Positions 5,432-44,336 of a stretch of 44,336 bases of DNA are shown piece after piece. The notes beneath the pieces were generated by a model, which saw only the letters and a list, made by a program, of their open reading frames with translations, was not told the DNA's origin and made no database searches. The DNA lies in IMG/VR virus record IMGVR_UViG_3300031578_000104, positions 1 through 44,336 of that record. One strand, given 5' to 3'. Both the position numbers and the translations under genes were made by a program. How positions within the stretch are numbered: the stretch's first letter is position 1; every line of letters starts with the position of its first letter. Origin of the DNA: a virus.

Positions 5432-5623
5432 TTACTCAAGTCCATAGGTGCATCCCACAAACGAGCACCACTTATCCCCTCGCTTATTGCCTAGCAGCTT
5501 GGCTCCACACTTAGGACAATACTCATTAATCCAATCACCGATTAACAAATCATCGAAACATGTCTTACTCGGCCCTACTGCCATTTCCAACACCTCCAAA
5601 ATAATTTCAATCACATGGGACAC
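5432..5623 (-). CDS. Small zinc-ribbon protein
   Basis: 63 aa with CPKCG...CSFVGC motifs; directly follows the endolysin gene. Confidence 0.6.
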   Translation of the reverse strand: MSHVIEIILEVLEMAVGPSKTCFDDLLIGDWINEYCPKCGAKLLGNKRGDKWCSFVGCTYGLE

Positions 5624-5626
5624 CCC

Positions 5627-6367
5627 TTAAACCATTTCTGGGGCCAGGAGGCCTCCAGCATTTTTAATGACCTGGCGAAGCCTACGGTTTTCCTCCGCCA
5701 CCTTCTGGGTTTCCCTGCTAATCTTTAAGAGTCCAGCCACAACAAAAGCCTTATTTGCTGGCTCCTCCGGCTTATGTTCACCCGCCTGAATCAACCCGGC
5801 CTGTTCCGCTACCTGCATAACCTCAATCTCCCATTGTTCCGGCACTGTTTTTTCCTCCTTCGTTGGTTCGTAAAAAATAAAATAGTTGAGTGATTGCTGC
5901 CTGAAAATGTCATAGCTTGCCTTGGTCCTCGTTTCCGAATTTGGATCGTTGACAAGGATCTGATCGCCACCCTCCGACAACCCCCACAGTAGGATGTAAT
6001 GACCTATTGTGGTGAAATATCCAGGCCCCATGCTTGCCACGACCAGAGCACCCTTTTTAAGGGCCTCAATGGCTTCGTTGGTCAAACTGGTCTGTTTAAA
6101 TTCCAGACCATACTTTTTCGCCGCAAAATCAAAGAATCCCCAGGCAACACCATTATTGTAGGTGCGATAAAAGTTATCCACGATCACCGTGGCCACATCG
6201 GGAGGCTTTATGTTCTGGTCCAGAAATGTGGCCAGCACCATTGCGAAGGATGCAGCTCCGCAGCCTGAAGTTGCAATCGTTTGTTTGGGGTCCCCGTGAC
6301 TGCTAAATGTTATGTATCCCCATCGGGTATCGTATTGGAGATAGTGAATAGGTTTGGTTGTCCGCAT
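5627..6367 (-). CDS. Endolysin candidate: peptidase C39-like cysteine peptidase domain protein
   Basis: ATG 6367 with a GGGGGTGA SD. Motifs TSGCGAASFAMVL (Cys) and GHYILLWG (His) are typical of Peptidase_C39_2-type cell wall hydrolases. Lies next to the XhlA-like gene. Confidence 0.65.
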   Translation of the reverse strand: MRTTKPIHYLQYDTRWGYITFSSHGDPKQTIATSGCGAASFAMVLATFLDQNIKPPDVATVIVDNFYRTYNNGVAWGFFDFAAKKYGLEFKQTSLTNEAIEALKKGALVVASMGPGYFTTIGHYILLWGLSEGGDQILVNDPNSETRTKASYDIFRQQSLNYFIFYEPTKEEKTVPEQWEIEVMQVAEQAGLIQAGEHKPEEPANKAFVVAGLLKISRETQKVAEENRRLRQVIKNAGGLLAPEMV

Positions 6368-6371
6368 CGAA

Positions 6372-6575
6372 TCACCCCCTTCTCTCAAGCAGGTTAGCCA
6401 CCAAAAGCAAAAGGGACAAAATACTTGTCCCCATTAGGCCCATGAACCAATATTGAAACCTGTCCAGTTTTTTTTCCATCCTAACTGCCCCTTCCTGTAA
6501 GCTTTTAATTTCGGTTTCAGTTCTAGTCAGCCTTTCCCGAACTTCAATCTCAGTCAATGTTCCACCCCCTGGCAA
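6372..6575 (-). CDS. XhlA-like lysis membrane protein
   Basis: 67 aa. N-terminal coiled coil (LTEIEVRERLTRTETEIKSLQE) plus a C-terminal TM helix (FMGLMGTSILSLLLLVANLL), the architecture of haemolysin XhlA family lysis proteins. Confidence 0.6.
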   Translation of the reverse strand: MPGGGTLTEIEVRERLTRTETEIKSLQEGAVRMEKKLDRFQYWFMGLMGTSILSLLLLVANLLERRG

Positions 6576-6749
6576 AATTTCTGCCCGACCCTAAGACTTT
6601 TTTCTCATTTCCGAAGTGTCAACTTTTCATTGCCCTTTTTACAGGCTTTTGTGATATTCTGATTATGCAGGTATGGGTGGTGACTCACCCACCCCGTTAG
6701 GGCCACCCCCGGCGGGGGCCTGCTGCCGCAAAAAGGAGAGATTGTAACT

Positions 6750-6916
6750 TGAAATACTTCTTTGGACTTATTGTCTTTTCCGCTGCAATCGGATTCATAT
6801 TCCCACCATGGAACAACTTTTTAGACTCCGCATGGCTTACCTTTTGGCTCGTAGTTGTCCCGGCAGCCGCATCATTTGTTTGGTGGTATGAGAGAAAAGA
6901 GCAAAGAAAAAATTAG
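6750..6916 (+). pseudogene. Frameshifted small 2-TM ORF on the opposite strand
   Basis: GGAGAG SD plus TTG 6750 opens a frame that stops after 24 codons. The -1 frame continues with AAIGFIFPPWNNFLDSAWLTFWLVVVPAAASFVWWYERKEQRKN. One extra T in the T4 run at 6777-6780 would give an intact 56-aa membrane protein. Confidence 0.3.
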
Positions 6917-16934: not shown

Positions 16935-16987
16935 GTTTACCTCCTTGTAGATAGAGAGGGCGGTTTCCCGCCCCCCCCCAGTTTGGT

Positions 16988-22700: not shown

Positions 22701-22898
22701 CTAATTAACTTTGTTTCGCACTACTGCCGCAACTTTCAATGGTTCATTCAGGTTTGTCCCCGCACATGTCCCGCATTTGGGATTGACACAGACAAGAAGC
22801 AGCTCCACATAAACATCGCTACTCCCTACCTCACTTTTATACTCACTATGCGACACCATCAAGGGTTGCTTGCACTCCAGACACTCCACCGCCTCCAC
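22701..22898 (-). CDS. Cys4 zinc-ribbon small protein
   Basis: 65 aa with CLEC...CVNPKCGTC; overlaps the portal 3' end by 53 nt. Confidence 0.5.
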   Translation of the reverse strand: MEAVECLECKQPLMVSHSEYKSEVGSSDVYVELLLVCVNPKCGTCAGTNLNEPLKVAAVVRNKVN

Positions 22899-24678
22899 CT
22901 CCTACCATCATTTGAGATTCTTGCGCTATCGCCGCCTGTAACTCCGGCGATAACTGACCGATAAACTGCTCAAAGGCCTCCATTTGCTCCTGCATTTTGG
23001 CCTGCTGCTCCTGTTGCTCCACCTCTTCGATTAAGCCCTCTTTGTCGGGGATAAGACCGCTTGCGATACGCTCCAGGTACTGTCTGAAGGTGATCAGCTG
23101 TTTGTCTAGTAGGCTGTCCAGGGTCTGAATAGAAGCGATCTCCGACCACTGAGTAGAGGCCCCCACGTCGATCTTGAGACTGAAAGTTGTCTGGCTGTAC
23201 TGCGAACCATCGAACGGTATCTGTACGACCTCCGACTGCTTTGTCTCGGGGTTGGTACGTTCAATCGTCAGCATCCGGGGGACACTATACTTTGTCAGCC
23301 AGTAGTCCAGCCATATAAGCCCCTGATCCTCTTTAAACTGTGCGAATCTGCGTTTGTTGGTGGACAGCGGCAGGACTGACGCTTTTTGCAGGGCAATAAT
23401 ACCGGCTGCGGTCTTGGTTACACTGTCATCACCAAGGGCTGTCTCATTTGCCCCGGCCATGTCCTTTGTGGTCTGCACCAGCATTTCAAAGAGGTTTTGA
23501 ACACTGGCGGGAAGTCCCTGCGGCTGGAGATACATAGCCGCGCTCGTTATGTCACCATCTACCGGTATTGCTTTGGTTATATCGTTTGACCATGCCGGGA
23601 TCCGGGAAGAGTCGTAAACAGGTTTGGGGTATGCGTTTATCATTGTCCACAAGATCATGGTCGCCATTAATTTGTTGATCGCGATATTGTTCGGGATTAA
23701 CTCCGTGGCCTCGGCCTCACCGTGACAACTATTTTTGCGTGGTGTCCACTGTAGGGATGCCACCGGGTAGCGGTGTAGTTTGGTATCCCAATCCTTGCGA
23801 ACTACAGCGGCCTGTGTGGATTTCCTGGCCCATATGGTGGTCACCCTATCCATAAGTTGCTTGCCTGTCTGGTCCATCATCGGAAACCCTGCGGGGTCAG
23901 TTTTGGGTATCTCCTCTGTCTTGGTCCACATCTTCAGCAGGACAGTGCAGAAACCGCCCTCATTGTCCTTATTGGGTTCTTTCTTGGCCCTGTCTCCTGC
24001 CCGGTACTGAGTATCACTGTCGCCGGTGATTTTATCTATCTCTTCCTTCGGTGCCTTGTTTCGCTTGGCTTCCTCTCGGACTTCTTTAACCAACTTACGA
24101 AATGACAAGATGATATAAGGCTGTACCGGCCCTCTCTTGTCGTTGGGCCTTGGGTCGCTGGTATTGCCTGGGAAGTAGCACACGTTGTCAATCAGTTCCC
24201 CGTTCATGTCGCCCATGACCGCGGCGCCCATCTCATTAACACCGGCATTAATGGTATCGTCCCAGTAGTAATAGATAATGCCATCACCGGACAAGGCGGC
24301 ATCAAAAATGGCCTGCTCGTCAAGGGTAGACTGTTTTAAGTTTTCATCGACTGTTTTTGAGTAGTCAGAGAGTAACCTTGCCACCTCTTGCAGCATGGCA
24401 ATCTTGTCCGGGTTGGCCGGGTCATAATTGGCTGAGTTCTCGGCGCTAAACTGCATGGTCAGCATGTCTGACATGATCTGACTGACCTTCCAATTGACTA
24501 TCCTTTTAGTCACGTTTAACCGGACCTGTGGCAGCCCCCCGGTGTCTACTCCGTCCCAGTGGTGGCCGGCGTAAAACCGTTCATTTCGGTTAGTGGTGGC
24601 GAATAGGTTGAGGCTGGATTTATAGTCTATCCCGTCCTTATAAAGCTGCCAATCGACTGTTTGGGTCTGCTCGTCCAA
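22846..24678 (-). CDS. Portal protein
   Basis: 610-aa ORF directly after TerL. NERFYAGHHW motif and an acidic C-terminus with a Gly run; size and position typical. Confidence 0.8.
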   Translation of the reverse strand: MDEQTQTVDWQLYKDGIDYKSSLNLFATTNRNERFYAGHHWDGVDTGGLPQVRLNVTKRIVNWKVSQIMSDMLTMQFSAENSANYDPANPDKIAMLQEVARLLSDYSKTVDENLKQSTLDEQAIFDAALSGDGIIYYYWDDTINAGVNEMGAAVMGDMNGELIDNVCYFPGNTSDPRPNDKRGPVQPYIILSFRKLVKEVREEAKRNKAPKEEIDKITGDSDTQYRAGDRAKKEPNKDNEGGFCTVLLKMWTKTEEIPKTDPAGFPMMDQTGKQLMDRVTTIWARKSTQAAVVRKDWDTKLHRYPVASLQWTPRKNSCHGEAEATELIPNNIAINKLMATMILWTMINAYPKPVYDSSRIPAWSNDITKAIPVDGDITSAAMYLQPQGLPASVQNLFEMLVQTTKDMAGANETALGDDSVTKTAAGIIALQKASVLPLSTNKRRFAQFKEDQGLIWLDYWLTKYSVPRMLTIERTNPETKQSEVVQIPFDGSQYSQTTFSLKIDVGASTQWSEIASIQTLDSLLDKQLITFRQYLERIASGLIPDKEGLIEEVEQQEQQAKMQEQMEAFEQFIGQLSPELQAAIAQESQMMVGGGGGGVSGVQATLDGVA

Positions 24679-24929: not shown

Positions 24930-26435
24930 TTAACTCCACCCTCCCTTAAAAAATCCCTCCGTCACCGTCGCGCTGTCGGCTCGGGGTTTGGGTTTTTCGC
25001 ACTCGAAGTTATAGTGTTCTGGTTCCGGTGCTGGGTGCTTAGTTGGTATTGTCTTCATCCTTATAGCCAACCCTGTCACTCCATCCGGCGCATCGTCGTG
25101 TTTATTCTTGCCAATCTTTACGTATGAGGTCAAGGCCCTCATAAACTTATCGTAGTCGCTGCCAGGTTCGTAATCTGACCGGAAATAGAAATACTCCTTT
25201 ACATACCCGGCATTCATTAGGATTCGCGTTTCTTTGTTGGTTGTTTCATGTTGGTCAATAACTGAGCATTTCCATTTTGGTTTAACCAGCTTACGAACAT
25301 TACGGGCATAGCTGCTTCCACCGTTATTGGCCTCAATGATCTCTATATCTTCCTTGGCATCGATAATCTTCTGCGCTACAAGCGGTTCGGTAACCTCAAC
25401 GCCGTCCTGGGTAAATACCACATCGGTTATGTAGGTGTAATCACCGTATCTTTTGCCTGTGACTGAACAAAGGTAATCGTCCCCCCGGTCTGCCGTATCG
25501 GTAAACCCTATAATACCGTCCGGCCTCTTTGTGGCCAAGTCTGCCATTGTAAAGCGGTTTAGCTGTTCAACGGGATAGAGTAAGCCCTTGGCCTCTATGG
25601 GGTTCTGCATGTACTCAGCTTCCCAGATAAAGTCCTCGGTCACTCGCTTAATGGACATATATTCAGCCGTTGTCTTTATTGCAGGGCAGAAGGTTTTGCC
25701 ATATTGGTCAAGGGCCGGTATCTTTATGACTGTAAACTCGTCGCTAAAATACTCGCTTGCCTCGTCTGCAAGCCGTCCTATGGGATCGTTTCTGCTCCAC
25801 CTGGTGGCAATGTGGATCTCCGGACATCCACTCTCAAACCGGCTCAGGTGTGTTGATGTGTACCAAAGCCACACGTTTTTTATGACTGTCTCGGACATGG
25901 CCTCTTCAATGTTTTTTATCGGATCGTCAAGTATGCCGGCCAGGTCGCAGCCTTTACCTGTTATTGGCCCACCCACGCCAGCACAAAAATAAGCGCTCCT
26001 TTTTGATGTTTCAAGCGCCCAATCTTCAATGGCTTTCCGGTCTGATTTTAGCTTTATCTTCGGGAATACCCTCAGATATTTGTCACTCTGCACCATCTGC
26101 CGTATATCATAGCTAAATGTGTGCGCCAGGTCTGCGGCGTAACTGTTTCTCATTATCGCGCCGACCGGATTCTTACCAAACATCCAGGCACACCACAAAG
26201 ATGTTTCATACGACTTGCCGGCCCGGGGCGGTTCTGAAATGGCTAGTTTTAGTATTTGCTTATCTGTTACACCCTGAAACGCTTCAGCAATTTCTTGAAG
26301 ATGTGGCTTATCATCTGAAAAAAACAACGGGTCCATATACCTACAAAAAAAATAGAAGTTGTTTATTAGTTTATCAATCCGATCCTCTTCAAGCAGCCTT
26401 AAAAGTTCAGTTTCCTCTTTTGGCGATAAGCTCAT
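24930..26435 (-). CDS. terL: Terminase large subunit
   Basis: 501 aa. Walker A PPRAGKSY, ATPase plus nuclease-domain length, follows TerS with a 29-nt overlap. Confidence 0.9.
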   Translation of the reverse strand: MSLSPKEETELLRLLEEDRIDKLINNFYFFCRYMDPLFFSDDKPHLQEIAEAFQGVTDKQILKLAISEPPRAGKSYETSLWCAWMFGKNPVGAIMRNSYAADLAHTFSYDIRQMVQSDKYLRVFPKIKLKSDRKAIEDWALETSKRSAYFCAGVGGPITGKGCDLAGILDDPIKNIEEAMSETVIKNVWLWYTSTHLSRFESGCPEIHIATRWSRNDPIGRLADEASEYFSDEFTVIKIPALDQYGKTFCPAIKTTAEYMSIKRVTEDFIWEAEYMQNPIEAKGLLYPVEQLNRFTMADLATKRPDGIIGFTDTADRGDDYLCSVTGKRYGDYTYITDVVFTQDGVEVTEPLVAQKIIDAKEDIEIIEANNGGSSYARNVRKLVKPKWKCSVIDQHETTNKETRILMNAGYVKEYFYFRSDYEPGSDYDKFMRALTSYVKIGKNKHDDAPDGVTGLAIRMKTIPTKHPAPEPEHYNFECEKPKPRADSATVTEGFFKGGWS

Positions 26436-27663: not shown

Positions 27664-27702
27664 TGGTCTCTGTTATAGTGGTCTCTGTTAATGGTATCTG
27701 TT
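27664..27702. repeat. Iteron set A: TGGTCTCTGTTA x2 plus TGGTATCTGTT
   Basis: Copies start at 27664, 27679 and 27692. Confidence 0.8.
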
Positions 27703-27710
27703 CGTATACT

Positions 27711-27782
27711 AAATCTAGTATAGGTGGGTATATCAAATCTAGTATAGGTCATCCCCTAACCTATATCATTTTTAGTATAGGT
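27711..27782. repeat. Iteron set B: AAATCTAGTATAGGT x2 plus TTTTTAGTATAGGT, with an inverted partial copy ACCTATA
   Basis: TAGTATAGGT at 27716, 27740 and 27773; the inverted acctat at 27759-27764. The last copy overlaps the stop of the wHTH gene. Confidence 0.8.
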
Positions 27783-33197: not shown

Positions 33198-33398
33198 CTA
33201 TTTTGCCACCCTGGCGATCTGCGGTTCCCAATTATGTGGCGGGGCACTCCTGAACTCAGCTAACCCCTCAGTCAACACCTCGCCCCTTACCCCAGAAAGG
33301 TGCTTTCTCATGTACCTTCCTTGCCCGGCTATCGGCATTTTTAGCAGTGTGTCCCTGTGCTCCTTGCACCACTCGTAAACCTGCCATTTGTTCATCAT
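33198..33398 (-). CDS. Hypothetical protein overlapping the dnaB 3' end in another frame
   Basis: 66 aa, ATG after GAAAGGGA. The sequence MMNKWQVYEWCKEHRDTLLK... looks protein-like, whereas the co-located DnaB tail is Arg/Gly-rich. Confidence 0.4.
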   Translation of the reverse strand: MMNKWQVYEWCKEHRDTLLKMPIAGQGRYMRKHLSGVRGEVLTEGLAEFRSAPPHNWEPQIARVAK

Positions 33399-34722
33399 TT
33401 ACATCCCTTTCAATCTCCAAAAATCTTGTTGACTCCTTAGCGAAGAATATTTCAAGTTTGCCCGTGGGGCCGTTGCGCTGCTTGGCTAAAATAACCTCGG
33501 CAATACCCTTCTTGTCTGACTTTTCCCGCTTGTAATGCTCATCCCGGTATAGGAACATCACCACATCAGCATCTTGCTCCAAGTCTCCTGACTCCCGGAG
33601 ATCCCTTAACTGCGGCCTTTTATCTTTCTCGCTTTCTGCCCCCCGGTTAAGCTGACACAGGAGCACTACCGGTATATTTAGTTCTTTGGCCAACTCTTTC
33701 AGGTCTTTGGATATTTCCCCGACCTCCATGTAGCGTTTTTCCGCTTTCCTGGCTGACCTTATAAAGCCAAGATGATCAATAAAAACCATGTCAAGACCCA
33801 TAGTCACCTTCATTTTGCGACATCTATGCGCTATATCGATGGTGGTCAACCTTGTGGTATCGTCGATGTAAACCCCTGACTGTATAAGCGTTGACCCTGC
33901 TGCAGATATGCGATCCCATTCTCCCGCACTCAACATTCCAACTCTGACGTTTTGCGCTGACACTGCACCCTCGTTAACAAGTAACTTTTCAATCATCTGC
34001 CGCCTGGACATTTCCAGGGAAAAGAATGCAACTTTTGCCCCGTGGTTTACTGCTGCCGTTTTTGCTTCTTGGGCAGCAAAGGTGGTTTTACCCATTGATG
34101 GTCTGCCGGCAATTATAATCAGGTCTCCCCGTTGGTATCCGGCAAGCCAGGCTGTCAGCACGGGATATCCTGTCGGTATGCCGGTGATAGTTTTTTTCCT
34201 GGCCCTATTTTCAATGTCCAGCATGACCGGCACTAATCCCTGTCCAATATGCTCAAGTCCACCCTTAACCGTTTTAACTTCAATGTTGGATAATTCTGCC
34301 TCAGCGTAGGTCAGTAATTCCATGGGACTTTCGTACTCTCCATTAAAAGCCTTAGCCTTTATTTTTTCCAGTGCTGACAGTGTTTTACGGGCTATTGCCT
34401 TGGACTCTACTATTTTGGCGTGCTGCTCAACAAAAGACGTTGATGCAAGACATCCAGTTAGCCCGGCAATAAACACGCTGCCGCCTATAGTTTCAAGCAT
34501 CCCTTTGTTTCTCAGGTAGTCGCACACACTTACCATGTCGGGGGTAGTTTTTTTGTTGATAAGGTGTGTGATGGCCTCAAATATTTCACCGTGGCCAGAT
34601 ATGTAAAAGTCACTCGGGGAAAGTATTTCCTGCGCCTTTTCTGCAGCCTCACGCTCCATTAGGCAAGCTCCTAATACTTGTCGTTCAGCTTCCTGGTCCT
34701 GGGGCTGTATTAAAGCGGCCAT
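33268..34722 (-). CDS. dnaB: Replicative DNA helicase DnaB
   Basis: 484 aa. N-terminal QDQEAERQVLGACL, Walker A GRPSMGKTTFA, Walker B MVFIDHLG, LAKELNIPVVLLCQLNR. Confidence 0.95.
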   Translation of the reverse strand: MAALIQPQDQEAERQVLGACLMEREAAEKAQEILSPSDFYISGHGEIFEAITHLINKKTTPDMVSVCDYLRNKGMLETIGGSVFIAGLTGCLASTSFVEQHAKIVESKAIARKTLSALEKIKAKAFNGEYESPMELLTYAEAELSNIEVKTVKGGLEHIGQGLVPVMLDIENRARKKTITGIPTGYPVLTAWLAGYQRGDLIIIAGRPSMGKTTFAAQEAKTAAVNHGAKVAFFSLEMSRRQMIEKLLVNEGAVSAQNVRVGMLSAGEWDRISAAGSTLIQSGVYIDDTTRLTTIDIAHRCRKMKVTMGLDMVFIDHLGFIRSARKAEKRYMEVGEISKDLKELAKELNIPVVLLCQLNRGAESEKDKRPQLRDLRESGDLEQDADVVMFLYRDEHYKREKSDKKGIAEVILAKQRNGPTGKLEIFFAKESTRFLEIERDVNDEQMAGLRVVQGAQGHTAKNADSRARKVHEKAPFWGKGRGVD

Positions 34723-35443
34723 CTTCTCTCATCCTCTCGATCAGGTCCTGCATGGCTATTTCATCGTCGGTTAGTTCTTGTGGTGGTGACTTCCCACCAC
34801 TTTTCTGCTCATCTTCCTCAAGCCTTTTAATAACCCAGTTCAGTATTGCCCGGTAATCAGATTTGTATTTTTTCCCGTTTGCCCCTTTGTAGTTGTCAAG
34901 GATTTCAATACATAGCCTAACCCTTTCCTCGCTGCCCAGTTTCGCCACAAGTGCCTTGTGCTCGGCATTGGTCAGGCTGACAAACTCGGCATATTTTTTT
35001 TTAAGGGGGGTAAGGGGGGTATTAGTATCTGTATCTGTATCTGTATCTGTATCTGAGTATGTATCGTGACTTCTCGTGACAACTAGTGACTGTTCCACTT
35101 TTTGTCGTGACCTTTGTTGTCTTTTCCTTTCCCTGGTGGCTTCCGGGGTATCTGATGGATTGTCGTAATTTCGTTTACGGAAGTTAATAAAGGTTATTTC
35201 TTCGTCAGTCACCTCGATAATACGGAGGCGTTCAAGGAGCTGGACGGTTTCGTTTAATGCGTCAATATCTCCATTTGAAACTTCAATAGCAAGTAACTCC
35301 GGATCGTATCCTGAGACGGTTCCCCGATTATCCTGCTCATTTACAAGGCAAAGAAGATTAAACCATATCCTGTGTTGACTATCGGTAAGTGACCTTATTT
35401 TTGCGTCATTCCTGGCCTCTGAGTACATCCGAAACCAATCCAA
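34685..35443 (-). CDS. Phage replisome organiser / DnaD-like replication initiation protein
   Basis: 252 aa. The N-terminal WFRMYSEARNDAKIRSL motif (Phage_rep_org_N), a (DT)n linker and a DnaD-like C-terminal half; immediately upstream of dnaB. Confidence 0.8.
   Translation of the reverse strand: MDWFRMYSEARNDAKIRSLTDSQHRIWFNLLCLVNEQDNRGTVSGYDPELLAIEVSNGDIDALNETVQLLERLRIIEVTDEEITFINFRKRNYDNPSDTPEATRERKRQQRSRQKVEQSLVVTRSHDTYSDTDTDTDTDTNTPLTPLKKKYAEFVSLTNAEHKALVAKLGSEERVRLCIEILDNYKGANGKKYKSDYRAILNWVIKRLEEDEQKSGGKSPPQELTDDEIAMQDLIERMREDGRFNTAPGPGS
35025..35054. repeat. Hexanucleotide microsatellite (GTATCT)x5 inside the replisome organiser gene
   Basis: Read directly; encodes DTDTDTDTDT. It is flanked by T9 (34994-35002) and two G6 runs (35005-10, 35014-19). 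Confidence 0.95.
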
Positions 35444-37724: not shown

Positions 37725-38423
37725 TTAGCCTGCCTTCCTCTGGTTAAACACCTTGACAATTCCCCTTGCTTCAGACTCGGAGAGGTCTTTAAGGGACCTT
37801 ATTTCCCTTTTTATCATCTGGGAGAGTCCTTGCTTGAATTCTTCCTCTGTCTTTCCGACCTCGCCTCTTATGGCGTGGAGTGCTTTGATTGTGATGGGTT
37901 GTATTGCATCCTTGGGTGTTTCCGGTTCTTCTGTCCCAGGTTTCGTCTGTCCCTGCCCATTCTGTGCCGCCTGGGGTGGTTTATTATACTTAGTCGTATC
38001 CTTATCCCAATAGACATCTGCACCAAACCCCAAAGCCTTACACGCCACCGATATTGCATCGGTCAGGGCCATCTTGAAACATTCATCTGAGGTATATGGT
38101 CCACTCTTTTCCTTGGCGACAAATGAGCTGCCCCCGGTGCCGGGTATTGCCTCAGACCATGCCCCTTCATACTTAAAAAACAGTTCAATGTTCACAAATG
38201 CCGCTATTTCATCATTGCCGCCATTCTCAAGCCACTGCTTTGCAATTACATATCTCCAACCGATACCGCAGGGGCCGAATAGTTCAGTAAGTTGTTTGAT
38301 CCTCCACATGGGATTGATGTCGCTTTTGCCGCTTAGCCTGCCGCCAGCTATTACTTTCAGGGCTTCCTTTGGCACTGCCCTGGCTTGGTTGTATATGTGC
38401 AAATTGCCAACCTGTGCCGACAT
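37725..38423 (-). CDS. Single-strand annealing recombinase (Rad52/Sak-like)
   Basis: 232 aa. GGRLSGKSDINPMWRIKQLTELFGPCGIGW resembles the Rad52-family core. Flanked by SSB and Gp157. Confidence 0.55.
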   Translation of the reverse strand: MSAQVGNLHIYNQARAVPKEALKVIAGGRLSGKSDINPMWRIKQLTELFGPCGIGWRYVIAKQWLENGGNDEIAAFVNIELFFKYEGAWSEAIPGTGGSSFVAKEKSGPYTSDECFKMALTDAISVACKALGFGADVYWDKDTTKYNKPPQAAQNGQGQTKPGTEEPETPKDAIQPITIKALHAIRGEVGKTEEEFKQGLSQMIKREIRSLKDLSESEARGIVKVFNQRKAG

Positions 38424-38434
38424 TGCTACCCCCC

Positions 38435-38929
38435 CTATCTAATCCTTAAACTCTTGCCCTGCGTCAGCGTTGCCCCTGGCACTTCCGCGCCACCTTTCAA
38501 GGCTTCCGCTATGCGCTTTTTGTCGGGTATGCGTTGCTCTGGTACGATTGTGATAAATGCGGCTGGTATTTTGGCCTCATCCTCGATGTTAACAGCAGGA
38601 GGATTCTTCTGAAGTGCTATGGTGATTGTGGGGGTCTTAATTTTGTCCAGGTTAGCAAACTCCATCTGCCCCTGTATATACTCCTTAATATTGCTCACTC
38701 TGTTCTCAAGGGCTTTTCTGCGCTCTGCAAGGCGTTTTTCCTCTGCCTTGATAATACTCGCATCACCCTCCAGGGACCGGATAAAGTTGACGATGTTCAC
38801 AGCCTTATCCTCAATGGCCCCCTCTATAGAGGCTAAAGTGTCTTCTATGACCGCAAGGTCAACAGTCTCATCGTTGACCATATCCCACACTTGGCGGTAA
38901 TCCCCGGTCAGCTCGTATAGGCTAGGCAT
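38435..38929 (-). CDS. Siphovirus Gp157-family protein
   Basis: Start at MPSLYELTGDY. The helical N-terminus and C-terminal IPDKKRIAEALKGGAEVPGA pattern are typical of the Gp157 family. Confidence 0.65.
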   Translation of the reverse strand: MPSLYELTGDYRQVWDMVNDETVDLAVIEDTLASIEGAIEDKAVNIVNFIRSLEGDASIIKAEEKRLAERRKALENRVSNIKEYIQGQMEFANLDKIKTPTITIALQKNPPAVNIEDEAKIPAAFITIVPEQRIPDKKRIAEALKGGAEVPGATLTQGKSLRIR

Positions 38930-39004
38930 CGTGCTCAACCTCCTCATCCTCTTGGCAGTCGTCATAGTGGTCCATATACCACTTTGCGTATGGCAGCGGC
39001 TTAC

Positions 39005-42569: not shown

Positions 42570-42758
42570 TCAGCGGCAGGCACTTCCTCGGGTTCCATAG
42601 CCTTCTGATGCTTGGGTCTTTTGGTTGATAGACACTATTGATCCGATTGATAACAGTTCACTCCTTTCGTTTAGACTTTTTCTTATCTCGTCAACCCGTT
42701 CCCTGACAATCATCCTAATTATGTCCGCAGTCCAGGGGCCGGGAGGATAATCTAACAT
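42570..42758 (-). CDS. Hypothetical protein
   Basis: 62-aa ORF overlapping the upstream stop by 7 nt. Confidence 0.45.
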   Translation of the reverse strand: MLDYPPGPWTADIIRMIVRERVDEIRKSLNERSELLSIGSIVSINQKTQASEGYGTRGSACR

Positions 42759-43663
42759 TCCACAAACACCCCATTAACCAGTTGGTAAAACGTATCTGAC
42801 TTAATTTTTTCACCATCTACCATAGCACACTGAACATCTTTTATGCGATCTCCACCTTCGTCCCACTCAGCAAGAACGATCCAACATCCAAGGGCACCCC
42901 TAGCTTTACTTTTGTAGCCGGTTGCAATAGCGACTGACTCTTTGCCCTCAACGGTGGCTGCGCTCCGGTCTCCGGTGTTGGTGGCTGCGCTCCGGTCTCC
43001 GGTGTTGGTGGCTGCGCTCCGGTCTCCGGTGTTGGTGGCTGCGCTCTGGTACCCGGTGTTGGTGGCTGCGCTCTGGTCTCCGGTGTTGGTGGCTGCGCTC
43101 TGGTACCCGGTGTTGGTGGCTGCGCTCTGGTACCCGGTGTTGGTGGCTGCGCTCTGGTCTCCGGTGTTGGTGGCTGCGCTCCGGTCTCCGGTGTTGGTGG
43201 CTGCGCTCCGGTCTCCGGTGTTGGTGGCTGCGCTCTGGTACCCGGTGTTGGTGGCTGCGCTCTGGTCTCCGGTGTTGGTGGCTACGCTCTGGTCTCCGGT
43301 GTTGGTGGCTGCGCTCCGGTCTCCGGTGTTGGATTTTTTTTTATCATCCCAATTCACCCGGTCAAGAATAAACTTAACGCCAGCCTCAATCAGTCCAGGT
43401 AGTTTAATTTCAGCGCCAATCTTTATTTTTGTGCAGGCAACCTTGCTATCGTCATTGTGCCTATCCGTTTCTCCGTCACCCTCAACCTCTGCAAAGCGGC
43501 TGTCGGCTGGTTGGTAATAGCTAAAAATATCCAGTGGGTTCTCGCAAAAGTGAAATCCTTTCTGGCAGGCTTTGGCTTCCCTTTCCTCGTACTCGCCGCC
43601 GATTTCGTATTGGAAGCCTTTGCATTTTAGATCTTTGTCAAATCCCTTGAATCCTTTAATCAT
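42752..43663 (-). CDS. Repeat protein: Cys-containing N-domain (DUF7666-like) + 14 nonapeptide repeats (ATNTGD/Y-Q/R-SA) + C-terminal domain
   Basis: ATG 43663 (MIKGFKGFDKDLKCKGFQYE...GFHFCENPLDIFSYY) after GGGAAGGA. Repeats read directly. The family name is from memory. Confidence 0.75.
   Translation of the reverse strand: MIKGFKGFDKDLKCKGFQYEIGGEYEEREAKACQKGFHFCENPLDIFSYYQPADSRFAEVEGDGETDRHNDDSKVACTKIKIGAEIKLPGLIEAGVKFILDRVNWDDKKKSNTGDRSAATNTGDQSVATNTGDQSAATNTGYQSAATNTGDRSAATNTGDRSAATNTGDQSAATNTGYQSAATNTGYQSAATNTGDQSAATNTGYQSAATNTGDRSAATNTGDRSAATNTGDRSAATVEGKESVAIATGYKSKARGALGCWIVLAEWDEGGDRIKDVQCAMVDGEKIKSDTFYQLVNGVFVEC
42953..43330. repeat. Tandem repeat, 14 x 27 bp, near-identical units of three types
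   Basis: Unit ggtggctgcgctccggtctccggtgtt. Variants differ only at ccg/ctg and tctcc/taccc, plus one gct>gcta change. Unit starts at 42953 + 27n. Confidence 0.97.
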
Positions 43664-43692
43664 GGTATCCGTCCTTCCCGGCCTACATGGCC

Positions 43693-43821
43693 CTAACTCG
43701 TCTGTGACACTGGCTGATACCTCACGCACACCGGACACTTGGCACAATCGTCACACTCCTCTGTTATGCGCCCCGTACACTTTGGATTTATGCAGTTCTG
43801 GCAACAGGTGTCGGTTTTCAT
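43693..43821 (-). CDS. Cys8 mini-protein (42 aa)
   Basis: ATG 43821 after AAAGGAG. Product MKTDTCCQNCINPKCTGRITEECDDCAKCPVCVRYQPVSQTS. Confidence 0.5.
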   Translation of the reverse strand: MKTDTCCQNCINPKCTGRITEECDDCAKCPVCVRYQPVSQTS

Positions 43822-43839
43822 GCGGTTGCTCCTTTCTGG

Positions 43840-44037
43840 CTAGGCTGGCTCGCTTCGCTTTTCCATCCATTCAAAAAACTTTTGTTTTGGCACCCTGACC
43901 CGGCTTCCTATTTTGATAACCGGGAAATACTTTTGCTTTGCCAGTTCGTAAGCTCTGGCCTCGCCTATCCTGAGAATTTCAGCCACTTCCGGTATCGTGA
44001 ATAGATAAGGGTTTTCCTGCGGCCTTATAGGGTACAA
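43840..44037 (-). CDS. HTH_17 / excisionase-type DNA-binding protein (Xis candidate)
   Basis: 65 aa. YLFTIPEVAEILRIGEARAYELAKQKYFPVIKIGSRVRVPKQKFFEWM is the classic excisionase-family HTH pattern. Confidence 0.7.
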   Translation of the reverse strand: MYPIRPQENPYLFTIPEVAEILRIGEARAYELAKQKYFPVIKIGSRVRVPKQKFFEWMEKRSEPA

Positions 44038-44055
44038 CTAGTTCAACTCCTTTCG

Positions 44056-44286
44056 TTAGGATTCGGTTCCGGTTGGATTTTGGGAAATCTCATCACATTT
44101 ATCATCAAAAAATTTTTGCCAACGAAACCTGAATACCTTACCCAGATTCTTAGCGACCTTAACGCTGGGCACTTGACCGGCTTCTATCTTGGCTATGTAA
44201 GACCTGTCCACACCTGTCATTCCGGCAACTTTTTCCTGTGTCCAGCTTTTTTTGATTCTCAGGTCCACAAGCCACCTATTGTCCAT
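44056..44286 (-). CDS. XRE-family HTH protein (Cro-like, first gene of the leftward early operon)
   Basis: 76 aa. WTQEKVAGMTGVDRSYIAKIEAG is HTH_3. Divergent from the repressor gene across the circular junction; its 5' end is duplicated at 1-77. Confidence 0.8.
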   Translation of the reverse strand: MDNRWLVDLRIKKSWTQEKVAGMTGVDRSYIAKIEAGQVPSVKVAKNLGKVFRFRWQKFFDDKCDEISQNPTGTES

Positions 44287-44336
44287 CGGTGCACCTCCTT
44301 CTGTGAATCTATATCACAATTATAATGTGAAATCTG
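44210..44336. repeat. Terminal direct repeat, copy 2 (identical to 1-127)
   Basis: Same 127-nt string as bases 1-127. Confidence 0.97.

Follow-up and report, generated by a model that had tools for sequence, protein, structure and literature searches.

Among described repeat proteins, the transcription activator-like (TAL) effectors are encoded by near-identical DNA repeats that carry two adjacent variable codons each, the repeat-variable diresidues (RVDs), and that vary in number; their units are α-helical, 33–35 amino acids (aa) long, and read DNA by a proven one-repeat-one-base code. Pentapeptide-repeat proteins (Qnr, MfpA and the product of orf232 of phage ST64T) are predicted repeat β-solenoids, and the RTX β-roll (GGxGxDxUx) of a secreted toxin repeats every nine residues, each unit forming one short strand and one turn. 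Closest to the subject of this report is a family of phage proteins that includes gp53 of Salmonella phage ES18. Here we describe a member of that family encoded in a stretch of viral DNA of 44,336 nucleotides (nt), positions 1 to 44,336 of IMG/VR record IMGVR_UViG_3300031578_000104; this whole stretch is called the window. The gene, at 42752..43663 on the minus strand, encodes 303 aa plus stop, according to the list of open reading frames (ORFs), the translation, and Pfam and PHROG matches. Its central part is an array of 14 units of 27 bp whose scaffold evolves in concert, while diversification is confined to two residues per unit.

Judged by profile matches, the repeat gene belongs to the DUF7666/phrog_4433 family, that of ES18 gp53, all of whose defining features it has, and it is a new member of this catalogued, uncharacterized family. 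Pfam profile DUF7666 matched residues 2–93 of the protein along profile positions 1–94 of 95 (E = 2e-38; 131 bits against a cut-off of 27), and phrog_4433 matched residues 2–303 along positions 13–310 of 312 (E = 3.7e-107), so that the repeats and the C-terminal domain were covered as well. The preliminary description of this DNA, made from the letters alone, had supposed that the domains flanking the repeats represent a conserved but uncharacterized phage family and had proposed a hidden Markov model search with them; that search found the family. ES18 gp53 is 51% identical to the window protein over its full length. It has in common with the window protein, as do SEN22 gp35, phi2 gp13 and fLi-Aba02 gp30, the N-terminal domain (N-domain), the array of nine-residue units in which Gly precedes a variable pair, the C-terminal domain and the position in the early operon. 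When compared to these relatives, the window copy has 14 units, only three types of variable pair and an unusually long run of nine A residues (A9), and nothing essential differs.

The N-domain, within which DUF7666 matches residues 2–93, comprises residues 1–107 (43343..43663, on the minus strand, as are all parts of the gene given here). It is followed by a linker, by the array (residues 111–236, 42956..43333) and by degenerate terminal units with a conserved C-terminal domain (residues 237–303, 42755..42955; motifs ..ESVAIATGYKSKARGALGCWIVLAEW...VDGEKIKSDTFYQLVNGVFVEC). An alignment of homologues revealed that the C-terminal columns are conserved, and the same motif recurs in subfamilies with another repeat consensus. 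The true start is ATG 43663, to judge from the ribosome-binding-like motif GGGAAGGA that was read directly 8 nt in front of it (43672..43679, minus strand) and from homologues that start at the equivalent Met (M-x-KG(F/Y)KGF); the upstream TTG at 43747, used in the deposited gene call of 331 aa, is unsupported by comparison. An antisense ORF at 42942-43517 (plus strand, 191 aa) was not taken as a gene, as it looks like a by-product of the repeat composition, the array being open in several frames.

The preliminary description had reported 14 in-phase units of 27 bp, and both Tandem Repeats Finder (42953-43332; period 27, 14.1 copies, 94% matches, score 655) and an in-frame reading of the array agreed with it. 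Unit 1 reads SNTGDRSAA and the other thirteen read TNTG-xx-SAA, with an A>V change in unit 2. In coding order, from 43333 to 42956, the variable pairs are DR DQ DQ YQ DR DR DQ YQ YQ DQ YQ DR DR DR, which makes six DR, four DQ (one of them with the A>V change) and four YQ units, exactly the three types and counts previously given. The same description had placed the differences between types at two nucleotide positions; we found three positions in two codon sites, namely GGAGAC versus GGGTAC (two adjacent bases, one of them silent in Gly) and CGG versus CAG. Two singleton differences complete the variation, C>T in unit 2 and T/A at the first base of unit 1. Two or three degenerate units (TVEGKESVA, IATGYKSKA, RGALGCWIV) follow the array. 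The 378 bp of the array have 67% G+C, compared to 47.7% for the genome, and its units are 93.7% identical on average. When the consensus unit was searched for with up to 3 mismatches, all 14 matches in the window fell in the array, and 100 dinucleotide-preserving shuffles gave none.

Units were compared within and between arrays in 81 loci, the window and 80 IMG/VR loci of the SAATNTG type, which gave 8453 unit pairs. These arrays have 6–40 units, with a median of 13. At the first variable position D (44%), Y (35%) and N (18%) prevail and at the second Q (42%), R (35%), Y (10%) and W (7%), whereas the other seven positions of the unit are essentially invariant in the protein; of 1133 units, 63% carry one of the four pairs DQ, YQ, YR and DR. 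Codons 5 and 6 differed in 58% of within-array unit pairs, with ratios of non-synonymous to synonymous differences of 4873:12 and 4858:12, while the seven scaffold codons differed in only 3–16% of within-array pairs. Between loci, by contrast, the same scaffold codons showed synonymous differences in 48–72% of pairs. By this pattern the scaffold evolves in concert and diversification is limited to two residues.

The number of units varies among close relatives as well. Pairs of metagenomic loci with 100% identical gene flanks, and with about 100% identity over the neighboring 1.5 kb where compared, had 22 versus 12, 13 versus 8 and 10 versus 9 units; one further such pair had 14 units in each, three of them changed. 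Two pairs with gene flanks 97–100% identical and upstream DNA 77–82% identical had 9 versus 17 and 28 versus 9 units, and block duplications are visible within arrays. Among cultured Salmonella phages with N and C parts 93–100% identical, ES18 has 12 units, S135 and S107 have 4, SEN22 has 22 and GE_vB_TR has about 27, with a frameshift. Match lengths in cultured Salmonella and Pseudomonas phages differ by exact multiples of 27 nt, and near-identical isolates of Rheinheimera Barba phages gave match lengths of 732, 747 or 762 nt, that is, steps of 15 nt or one five-residue unit. The preliminary description had read the array as recently expanded or contracted, a reading that an invariant repeat number across relatives would contradict; unit number differs among both metagenomic and cultured relatives and is therefore not invariant, and phages with identical flanks differ in the number and the order of units.

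The family is large and its architecture is constant. More than 8000 proteins matched the full repeat protein at E ≤ 1e-5, the DUF7666 N-domain alone matched 4607 representatives of clusters formed at 50% identity, and tblastn found the gene in 191 phage records, among them phages of Salmonella, Pseudomonas, Vibrio, Acinetobacter, Blautia, Ralstonia and Pseudanabaena. In 150 diverse representatives an N-domain of about 100 aa is followed by an array of 4–40 repeats, each ending in Gly and two hypervariable residues (mostly D/N/Y, then Q/R/Y/W), and by a C-terminal domain with the consensus ..SIA..G..SKAKG.LG.WIVL.E...VDG..IK.DT.Y.L..G..VE. The repeat consensus changes between subfamilies (SAATNTGxx, GAQATGxx, GAASATGxx, SALTGGxx, ANAATNGxx, AQIGSSGxx, NAAASGxx) and always ends in Gly plus two variable residues. 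In the Barba phages DUF7666 precedes a five-residue NTGxx array with the same variable alphabet; Barba5S gp043 (604-1581 of locus L091), which has 114 sister isolates, carries DUF7666, about 30 NTGxx units (Pfam Pentapeptide_2) and a different C-terminal domain. Complete E. coli genomes, searched with queries taken from related enterobacterial loci, yielded no copy of the gene, and a megablast search of the phage collection revealed no close relative of the window phage.

Homologues have been labeled c-type lectin precursor, pentapeptide, flagellar hook-length control protein or putative ADP-ribosyltransferase, and in the record of Vibrio phage 1.185.O._10N.286.49.C2 (MG592551.1, 27865-28674) a homologous array is annotated as four CRISPR spacers, a reading that we reject because the array is plainly coding. 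Several records start or end inside a homologous array (Pseudomonas MK511039, MK511041, MK511044, MK511047, MK511048, MK511050, MK511042 and MZ089728; Ralstonia MT740737, MT740726 and NC_054955), which evidently breaks assemblies and sets arbitrary genome ends. An NCBIfam scan of the repeat protein gave sub-threshold compositional matches only; collagen-like adhesins and YdhT, both from NCBIfam and far below the cut-off, as well as Spt5 from the PDB, were set aside as matches to the composition of the repeats.

AlphaFold2 modeled the full-length protein with a mean predicted local distance difference test score (pLDDT) of 82.7, with about 90 for the N-domain and 86–95 for the C-terminal domain. 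In the array it placed one five-residue strand (A-A-T-N-T) in each nine-residue unit and the variable pair in a G-x-x-S turn. A β-solenoid or β-roll with two units per coil is a reasonable reading of this model. The preliminary description had asked whether structure prediction would give a β-solenoid: the single strand per unit speaks for it, and the moderate confidence of the model in the array (pLDDT 58–80) speaks against. A Foldseek search of the full model against the PDB gave nothing significant; the rifampin ADP-ribosyltransferase Arr (2hw2) ranked first, followed by β-helix proteins and the CAP C-terminal domain, with low TM-scores. When BFVD was searched with the model, strong matches to other DUF7666 proteins were obtained. 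At E ~0.01 the same search listed ankyrin-repeat proteins of giant viruses over about 110 aligned columns (mimivirus R267 Q5UPU4, Megavirus, Moumouvirus, Tupanvirus) and DUF4116 proteins of Marseillevirus; if the giant-virus match covers the N-domain, a DUF7666-like fold may be combined there with a different repeat scaffold.

Measured against the systems named at the outset, the window protein is like the TAL effectors in evolutionary pattern only, with near-identical DNA repeats, two adjacent variable codons per repeat and a varying repeat number; unlike theirs, its units are 9 aa long and predicted to be β. With the RTX β-roll it shares the nine-residue period and one short strand and one turn per unit. 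Its unit (S/T)NTGxxSAA, however, has a single Gly, no calcium-binding GGxGxD and no Pfam match, and it is, unlike the secreted toxin, a cytoplasmic phage protein, so that an RTX assignment was rejected. Relatives of the gene are often annotated 'pentapeptide', and some P22-like phages encode a true pentapeptide-repeat protein in the same early-left slot. The window protein is not of that kind: its period is 27 bp or 9 aa instead of 5 aa, it lacks A(D/N)LXX, and it gave no Pentapeptide match at E ≤ 1 in the same Pfam scan that detected ST64T orf232 at E = 1e-28. A diversity-generating retroelement was likewise discarded, as no second copy of the unit exists in the window at up to 3 mismatches and the variation, G/T and G/A at fixed positions, is not specific to adenine; the window ORFs that were scanned, part of the total, included no reverse transcriptase.

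The position of the gene points to early expression, as the preliminary description had proposed. In the window it is the fourth gene of an operon opened near the window end by a Cro/XRE-like helix-turn-helix gene (44056-44286, minus strand), which is followed by genes for an excisionase-like helix-turn-helix protein (43840-44037, minus strand; both identified by PHROG) and, just upstream of the repeat gene, for a 42-aa Cys-rich protein (43693-43821, minus strand); PHROG matches among these upstream genes (43693..44286) were phrog_2439, phrog_3, phrog_66 and phrog_7338. In ES18 the homologue lies in the PL operon, directly after P-L, nutL and gene 24, an N-like antiterminator, and is followed by a terminator, cIII and kil. 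In Pseudomonas phage phi2 and Acinetobacter phage fLi-Aba02 it is found downstream of the repressor, in the leftward early operon. Related P22-like phages hold ral, sieB or a pentapeptide-repeat protein in the slot of ES18 gp53. In ST64T this slot, between ral and sieB/cIII, is taken by orf232 (1152-1850 of locus L090), a true A(D/N)LXX protein with GADLR units and without DUF7666; the position of ES18 gp53 is therefore filled there by a repeat solenoid of a second kind. A tail-fiber or other virion protein was dismissed, since the PHROG tail-fiber matches were weak (E 7e-5 to 0.1) and confined to the repeat region, and the neighbors of the gene are early genes, with the structural module far away. 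Salmonella phage Emek carries a remnant, or pseudogene, whose array has collapsed to about 1.5 units and is frameshifted, and the gene is therefore dispensable for Emek.

Taken with these observations, the reading that we prefer, and to which we give an even chance, is that the gene encodes a dispensable early accessory protein whose array is a variable specificity surface in phage-host or phage-phage conflict. The conserved N-terminal α/β domain of about 100 aa would serve as a constant effector or adaptor module. The 14 nine-residue units would stack in the manner of a β-solenoid, each with an invariant A-A-T-N-T strand and a G-x-x-S turn that is hypervariable at its two middle residues, and the conserved C-terminal domain would cap the stack. 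Unequal recombination, slippage or gene conversion would homogenize the DNA of the array, and the same processes would add, delete and shuffle units, while selection would fix the scaffold and drive diversification of the pair in the turn, though only within a small alphabet (D/N/Y, then Q/R/Y/W). Lined up in a row, the variable pairs would then form a specificity-determining surface for a macromolecule of the host or of a rival phage, and the protein would act in conflict, for example in counter-defense or host take-over. A variable binding surface had been among the possibilities raised in the preliminary description, and it fits the confinement of variation to two residues per unit and its almost entirely non-synonymous character.

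Several points weigh against this reading. The confidence of the model is lowest where the surface would lie, in the array. No conserved partner gene emerged when the ORFs within 3.5 kb were clustered in the 81 loci; the clustering gave only lineage-specific early genes (SSB-like, antirepressor-like, SbcC-like), none of them common with the window. A PADLOC scan of the repeat protein gave no defense-system match, PADLOC being without coverage of anti-defense genes. No paper on DUF7666 (PF24703), phrog_4433, the repeat peptide or ES18 gp53, nor any experiment bearing on the function, was found. The order of unit types within arrays is near random: at lags of 1–8 compared to shuffles the largest z was 2.5, so that no convincing periodicity was seen, a result that neither supports nor excludes a binding surface. 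The protein closest to that of the window phage is 77% identical, and the variation of the array is known from other phages. Finally, unit counts and orders from short-read metagenome assemblies can be wrong, and several phage records are broken inside the array; the metagenomic pairs are therefore the weaker evidence and more weight falls on the cultured phages.

The last point bears on the array of the window itself, whose 14 units in this order might be a product of short-read assembly, with other numbers or orders in the real population. At 378 bp of highly similar units, the array exceeds the usual length of short reads, the 127-bp overlap at the ends of the contig is of the kind that k-mer assemblers typically leave, and genomes are broken inside the array in Pseudomonas phages vB_Pae_CF24a, BR320a and PSA04 and in Ralstonia phages Firinga, Albius and Raharianne. 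The reading frame, however, is intact through the array into the conserved C-terminal domain, and the array occurs throughout the family with the same properties, including the ES18 record with its 2004 accession. We therefore regard an assembly product as unlikely for the number and order of units; the array as a feature, being family-wide on the sequence record, is certainly real. The A9 tract (43334..43342, minus strand; T9 on the plus strand) fared differently. As had been described, it lies directly before the array, where it encodes K108–K110 in frame in the linker between N-domain and array, and one-base slippage had been predicted to truncate the protein before the repeats. Removal of one A does truncate it, but inside unit 2, where the A>V change creates a TAG that ends the product after 126 aa, whereas addition of one A gives a 238-aa product that reads the whole array in another frame (QHRRPERSH units). 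The tract could thus be imagined as a phase-variation or frameshift switch, with slippage turning off the full-length protein or giving an alternative product, and several family entries (P0123, P0142 and P0150) are indeed frameshifted at the Lys-rich linker or inside the array; GE_vB_TR and Emek are frameshifted too, though inside the array and not in the linker. Such database entries, however, are indistinguishable from sequencing errors and are over-represented among cluster representatives by construction. A-runs before the array measure 2–6 in the 80 relatives, the longest being 6, so that the evidence on tract length, which had been coupled to that on repeat number, is opposite to the evidence on the array; moreover, the window has five other homopolymers of at least 8 bases, including C9 and another T9. 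A switch is accordingly quite improbable, and A9 is most likely incidental, a succession of Lys codons in a linker rich in this residue. On the coding strand, the frame of the version with ten A residues is also open through the whole array, and the other shifted frame stops at the TAG in unit 2.

Alternatives to a variable specificity surface were weighed for the function of the protein. The preliminary description had also mentioned a decoy or mimic, that is, a nucleic-acid mimic that would block a host DNA-binding defense enzyme as do pentapeptide-repeat proteins and Ocr/ArdA. Nucleic-acid mimics are usually built on a rod-like solenoid, and the slot of ES18 gp53 holds in other P22-like phages the restriction-alleviation gene ral or ST64T orf232 with its Pentapeptide match. 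The charge of the window protein is modest, however: it is mildly acidic (isoelectric point 4.87, net charge −10 over 303 aa), the array alone accounts for about −3, and across the family Asp at the first variable position is nearly balanced by Arg at the second. A hypervariable surface would not be expected, either, in the mimic of an invariant ligand, and we consider a mimic very improbable. A different role would follow if the N-domain were an ADP-ribosyltransferase-like enzyme or an NAD/ADP-ribose-binding module which the array targets to its substrate, so that a host or phage macromolecule is modified early. Modeled alone, the N-domain (pLDDT 94.8) gave in Foldseek a single PDB match above noise, Arr (9iaf; E = 0.042, prob 0.92, TMq 0.51, root-mean-square deviation 8.6), which is not statistically significant, and an Arr structure also heads the list for the full model. 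In 40 diverse N-domains K6, C14, H38, P43 and Y50 are invariant and C33, C40 and others are conserved in at least 90%; His38 and Tyr50 are what an H-Y-[EDQ] transferase requires, whereas E85, in the place of the third catalytic acid, is found in only about 70%, and Cys14, Cys33 and Cys40 are not transferase features and would, with His38, fit a zinc site. Annotators of Acinetobacter phages fLi-Aba02 and fEg-Aba01 labeled the homologue a putative ADP-ribosyltransferase, and a macro-like domain (phrog_2072) is fused to the protein in seven of the 150 representatives and in one further locus. On the other hand, hhalign of the DUF7666 profile with the single sequence of Arr-2 gave a probability of 0.1%, that is, no similarity, the N-domain profile found no transferase in the PDB by sequence, and all lines of evidence are below significance. 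An ADP-ribose-related activity of the N-domain is thus doubtful. As a bolder version of a binding surface, the array might be a modular recognition code in which each unit reads, through its variable pair, one unit of a periodic ligand such as a nucleic acid strand or a glycan, with the N-domain acting on the bound ligand. This we think scarcely probable; if true, it would be a TAL-effector-like programmable binder, reshuffled by recombination, present in thousands of phage lineages and unrecognized so far.

The extra N-terminal domain just mentioned is about 130 aa long and in the further locus belongs to a gene at 5538-6910 (L065). It matched phrog_2072 with E = 2e-36 and has the motifs FVFGSN..G.H.GGAA and IGCGIAG(F/Y). 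Weaker matches were obtained with Pfam Macro (E = 0.004) and, as the five top PDB profile matches, with OARD1/TARG1 (E ~0.09), followed by the macro-like BT1257; by these weak matches the domain looks like a TARG1-type macro domain.

The rest of the window is, on its sequence, that of a temperate tailed phage. Bases 1–127 are identical to bases 44210–44336, and the assembly is therefore circular, of about 44,209 bp, and probably a complete temperate phage genome; the length of the overlap is typical of an assembler run at k = 127. It encodes an integrase (1310-2464), a portal protein (22846-24678), a large terminase (24930-26435), a DnaB-like helicase (33268-34722), an exonuclease (37725-38423) and Gam (38435-38965), and nearly all genes lie on the minus strand. 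Downstream of the repeat gene, a 62-aa ORF without PHROG match (42570..42758, minus strand) has an ATG that overlaps the repeat-gene stop, which suggests, though it does not prove, translational coupling in the same operon. The 42-aa ORF on the upstream side, also without PHROG match, has Cys pairs (CCQNC...C...C..C..C..C) that suggest a small zinc-ribbon-like protein. The C9 run is located at 16971-16979 and the second T9 run at 34994-35002, where it adjoins a tandem repeat of five GTATCT units (35025-35065), and two short tandem repeats with units of 15 and 24 bp are present at 27664-27749, in a region with few long ORFs; these runs and repeats could be regulatory or origin-like elements.

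The family to which the window gene belongs as an ordinary member is very large, occurs in phages of many bacterial phyla and is unstudied. Its arrays have a practical consequence: short-read assemblies break at them, and annotators have mistaken them for CRISPR spacers, lectin precursors, pentapeptide proteins and flagellar hook-length control proteins. Early expression, as judged from position, dispensability, residence in a slot of anti-restriction and exclusion genes and the turnover of two presumably exposed residues per unit, faster than that of all around them, together make up the usual signature of an arms race, and homologues in tractable phages (ES18, SEN22 and temperate phages of P. 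aeruginosa) make the family testable.

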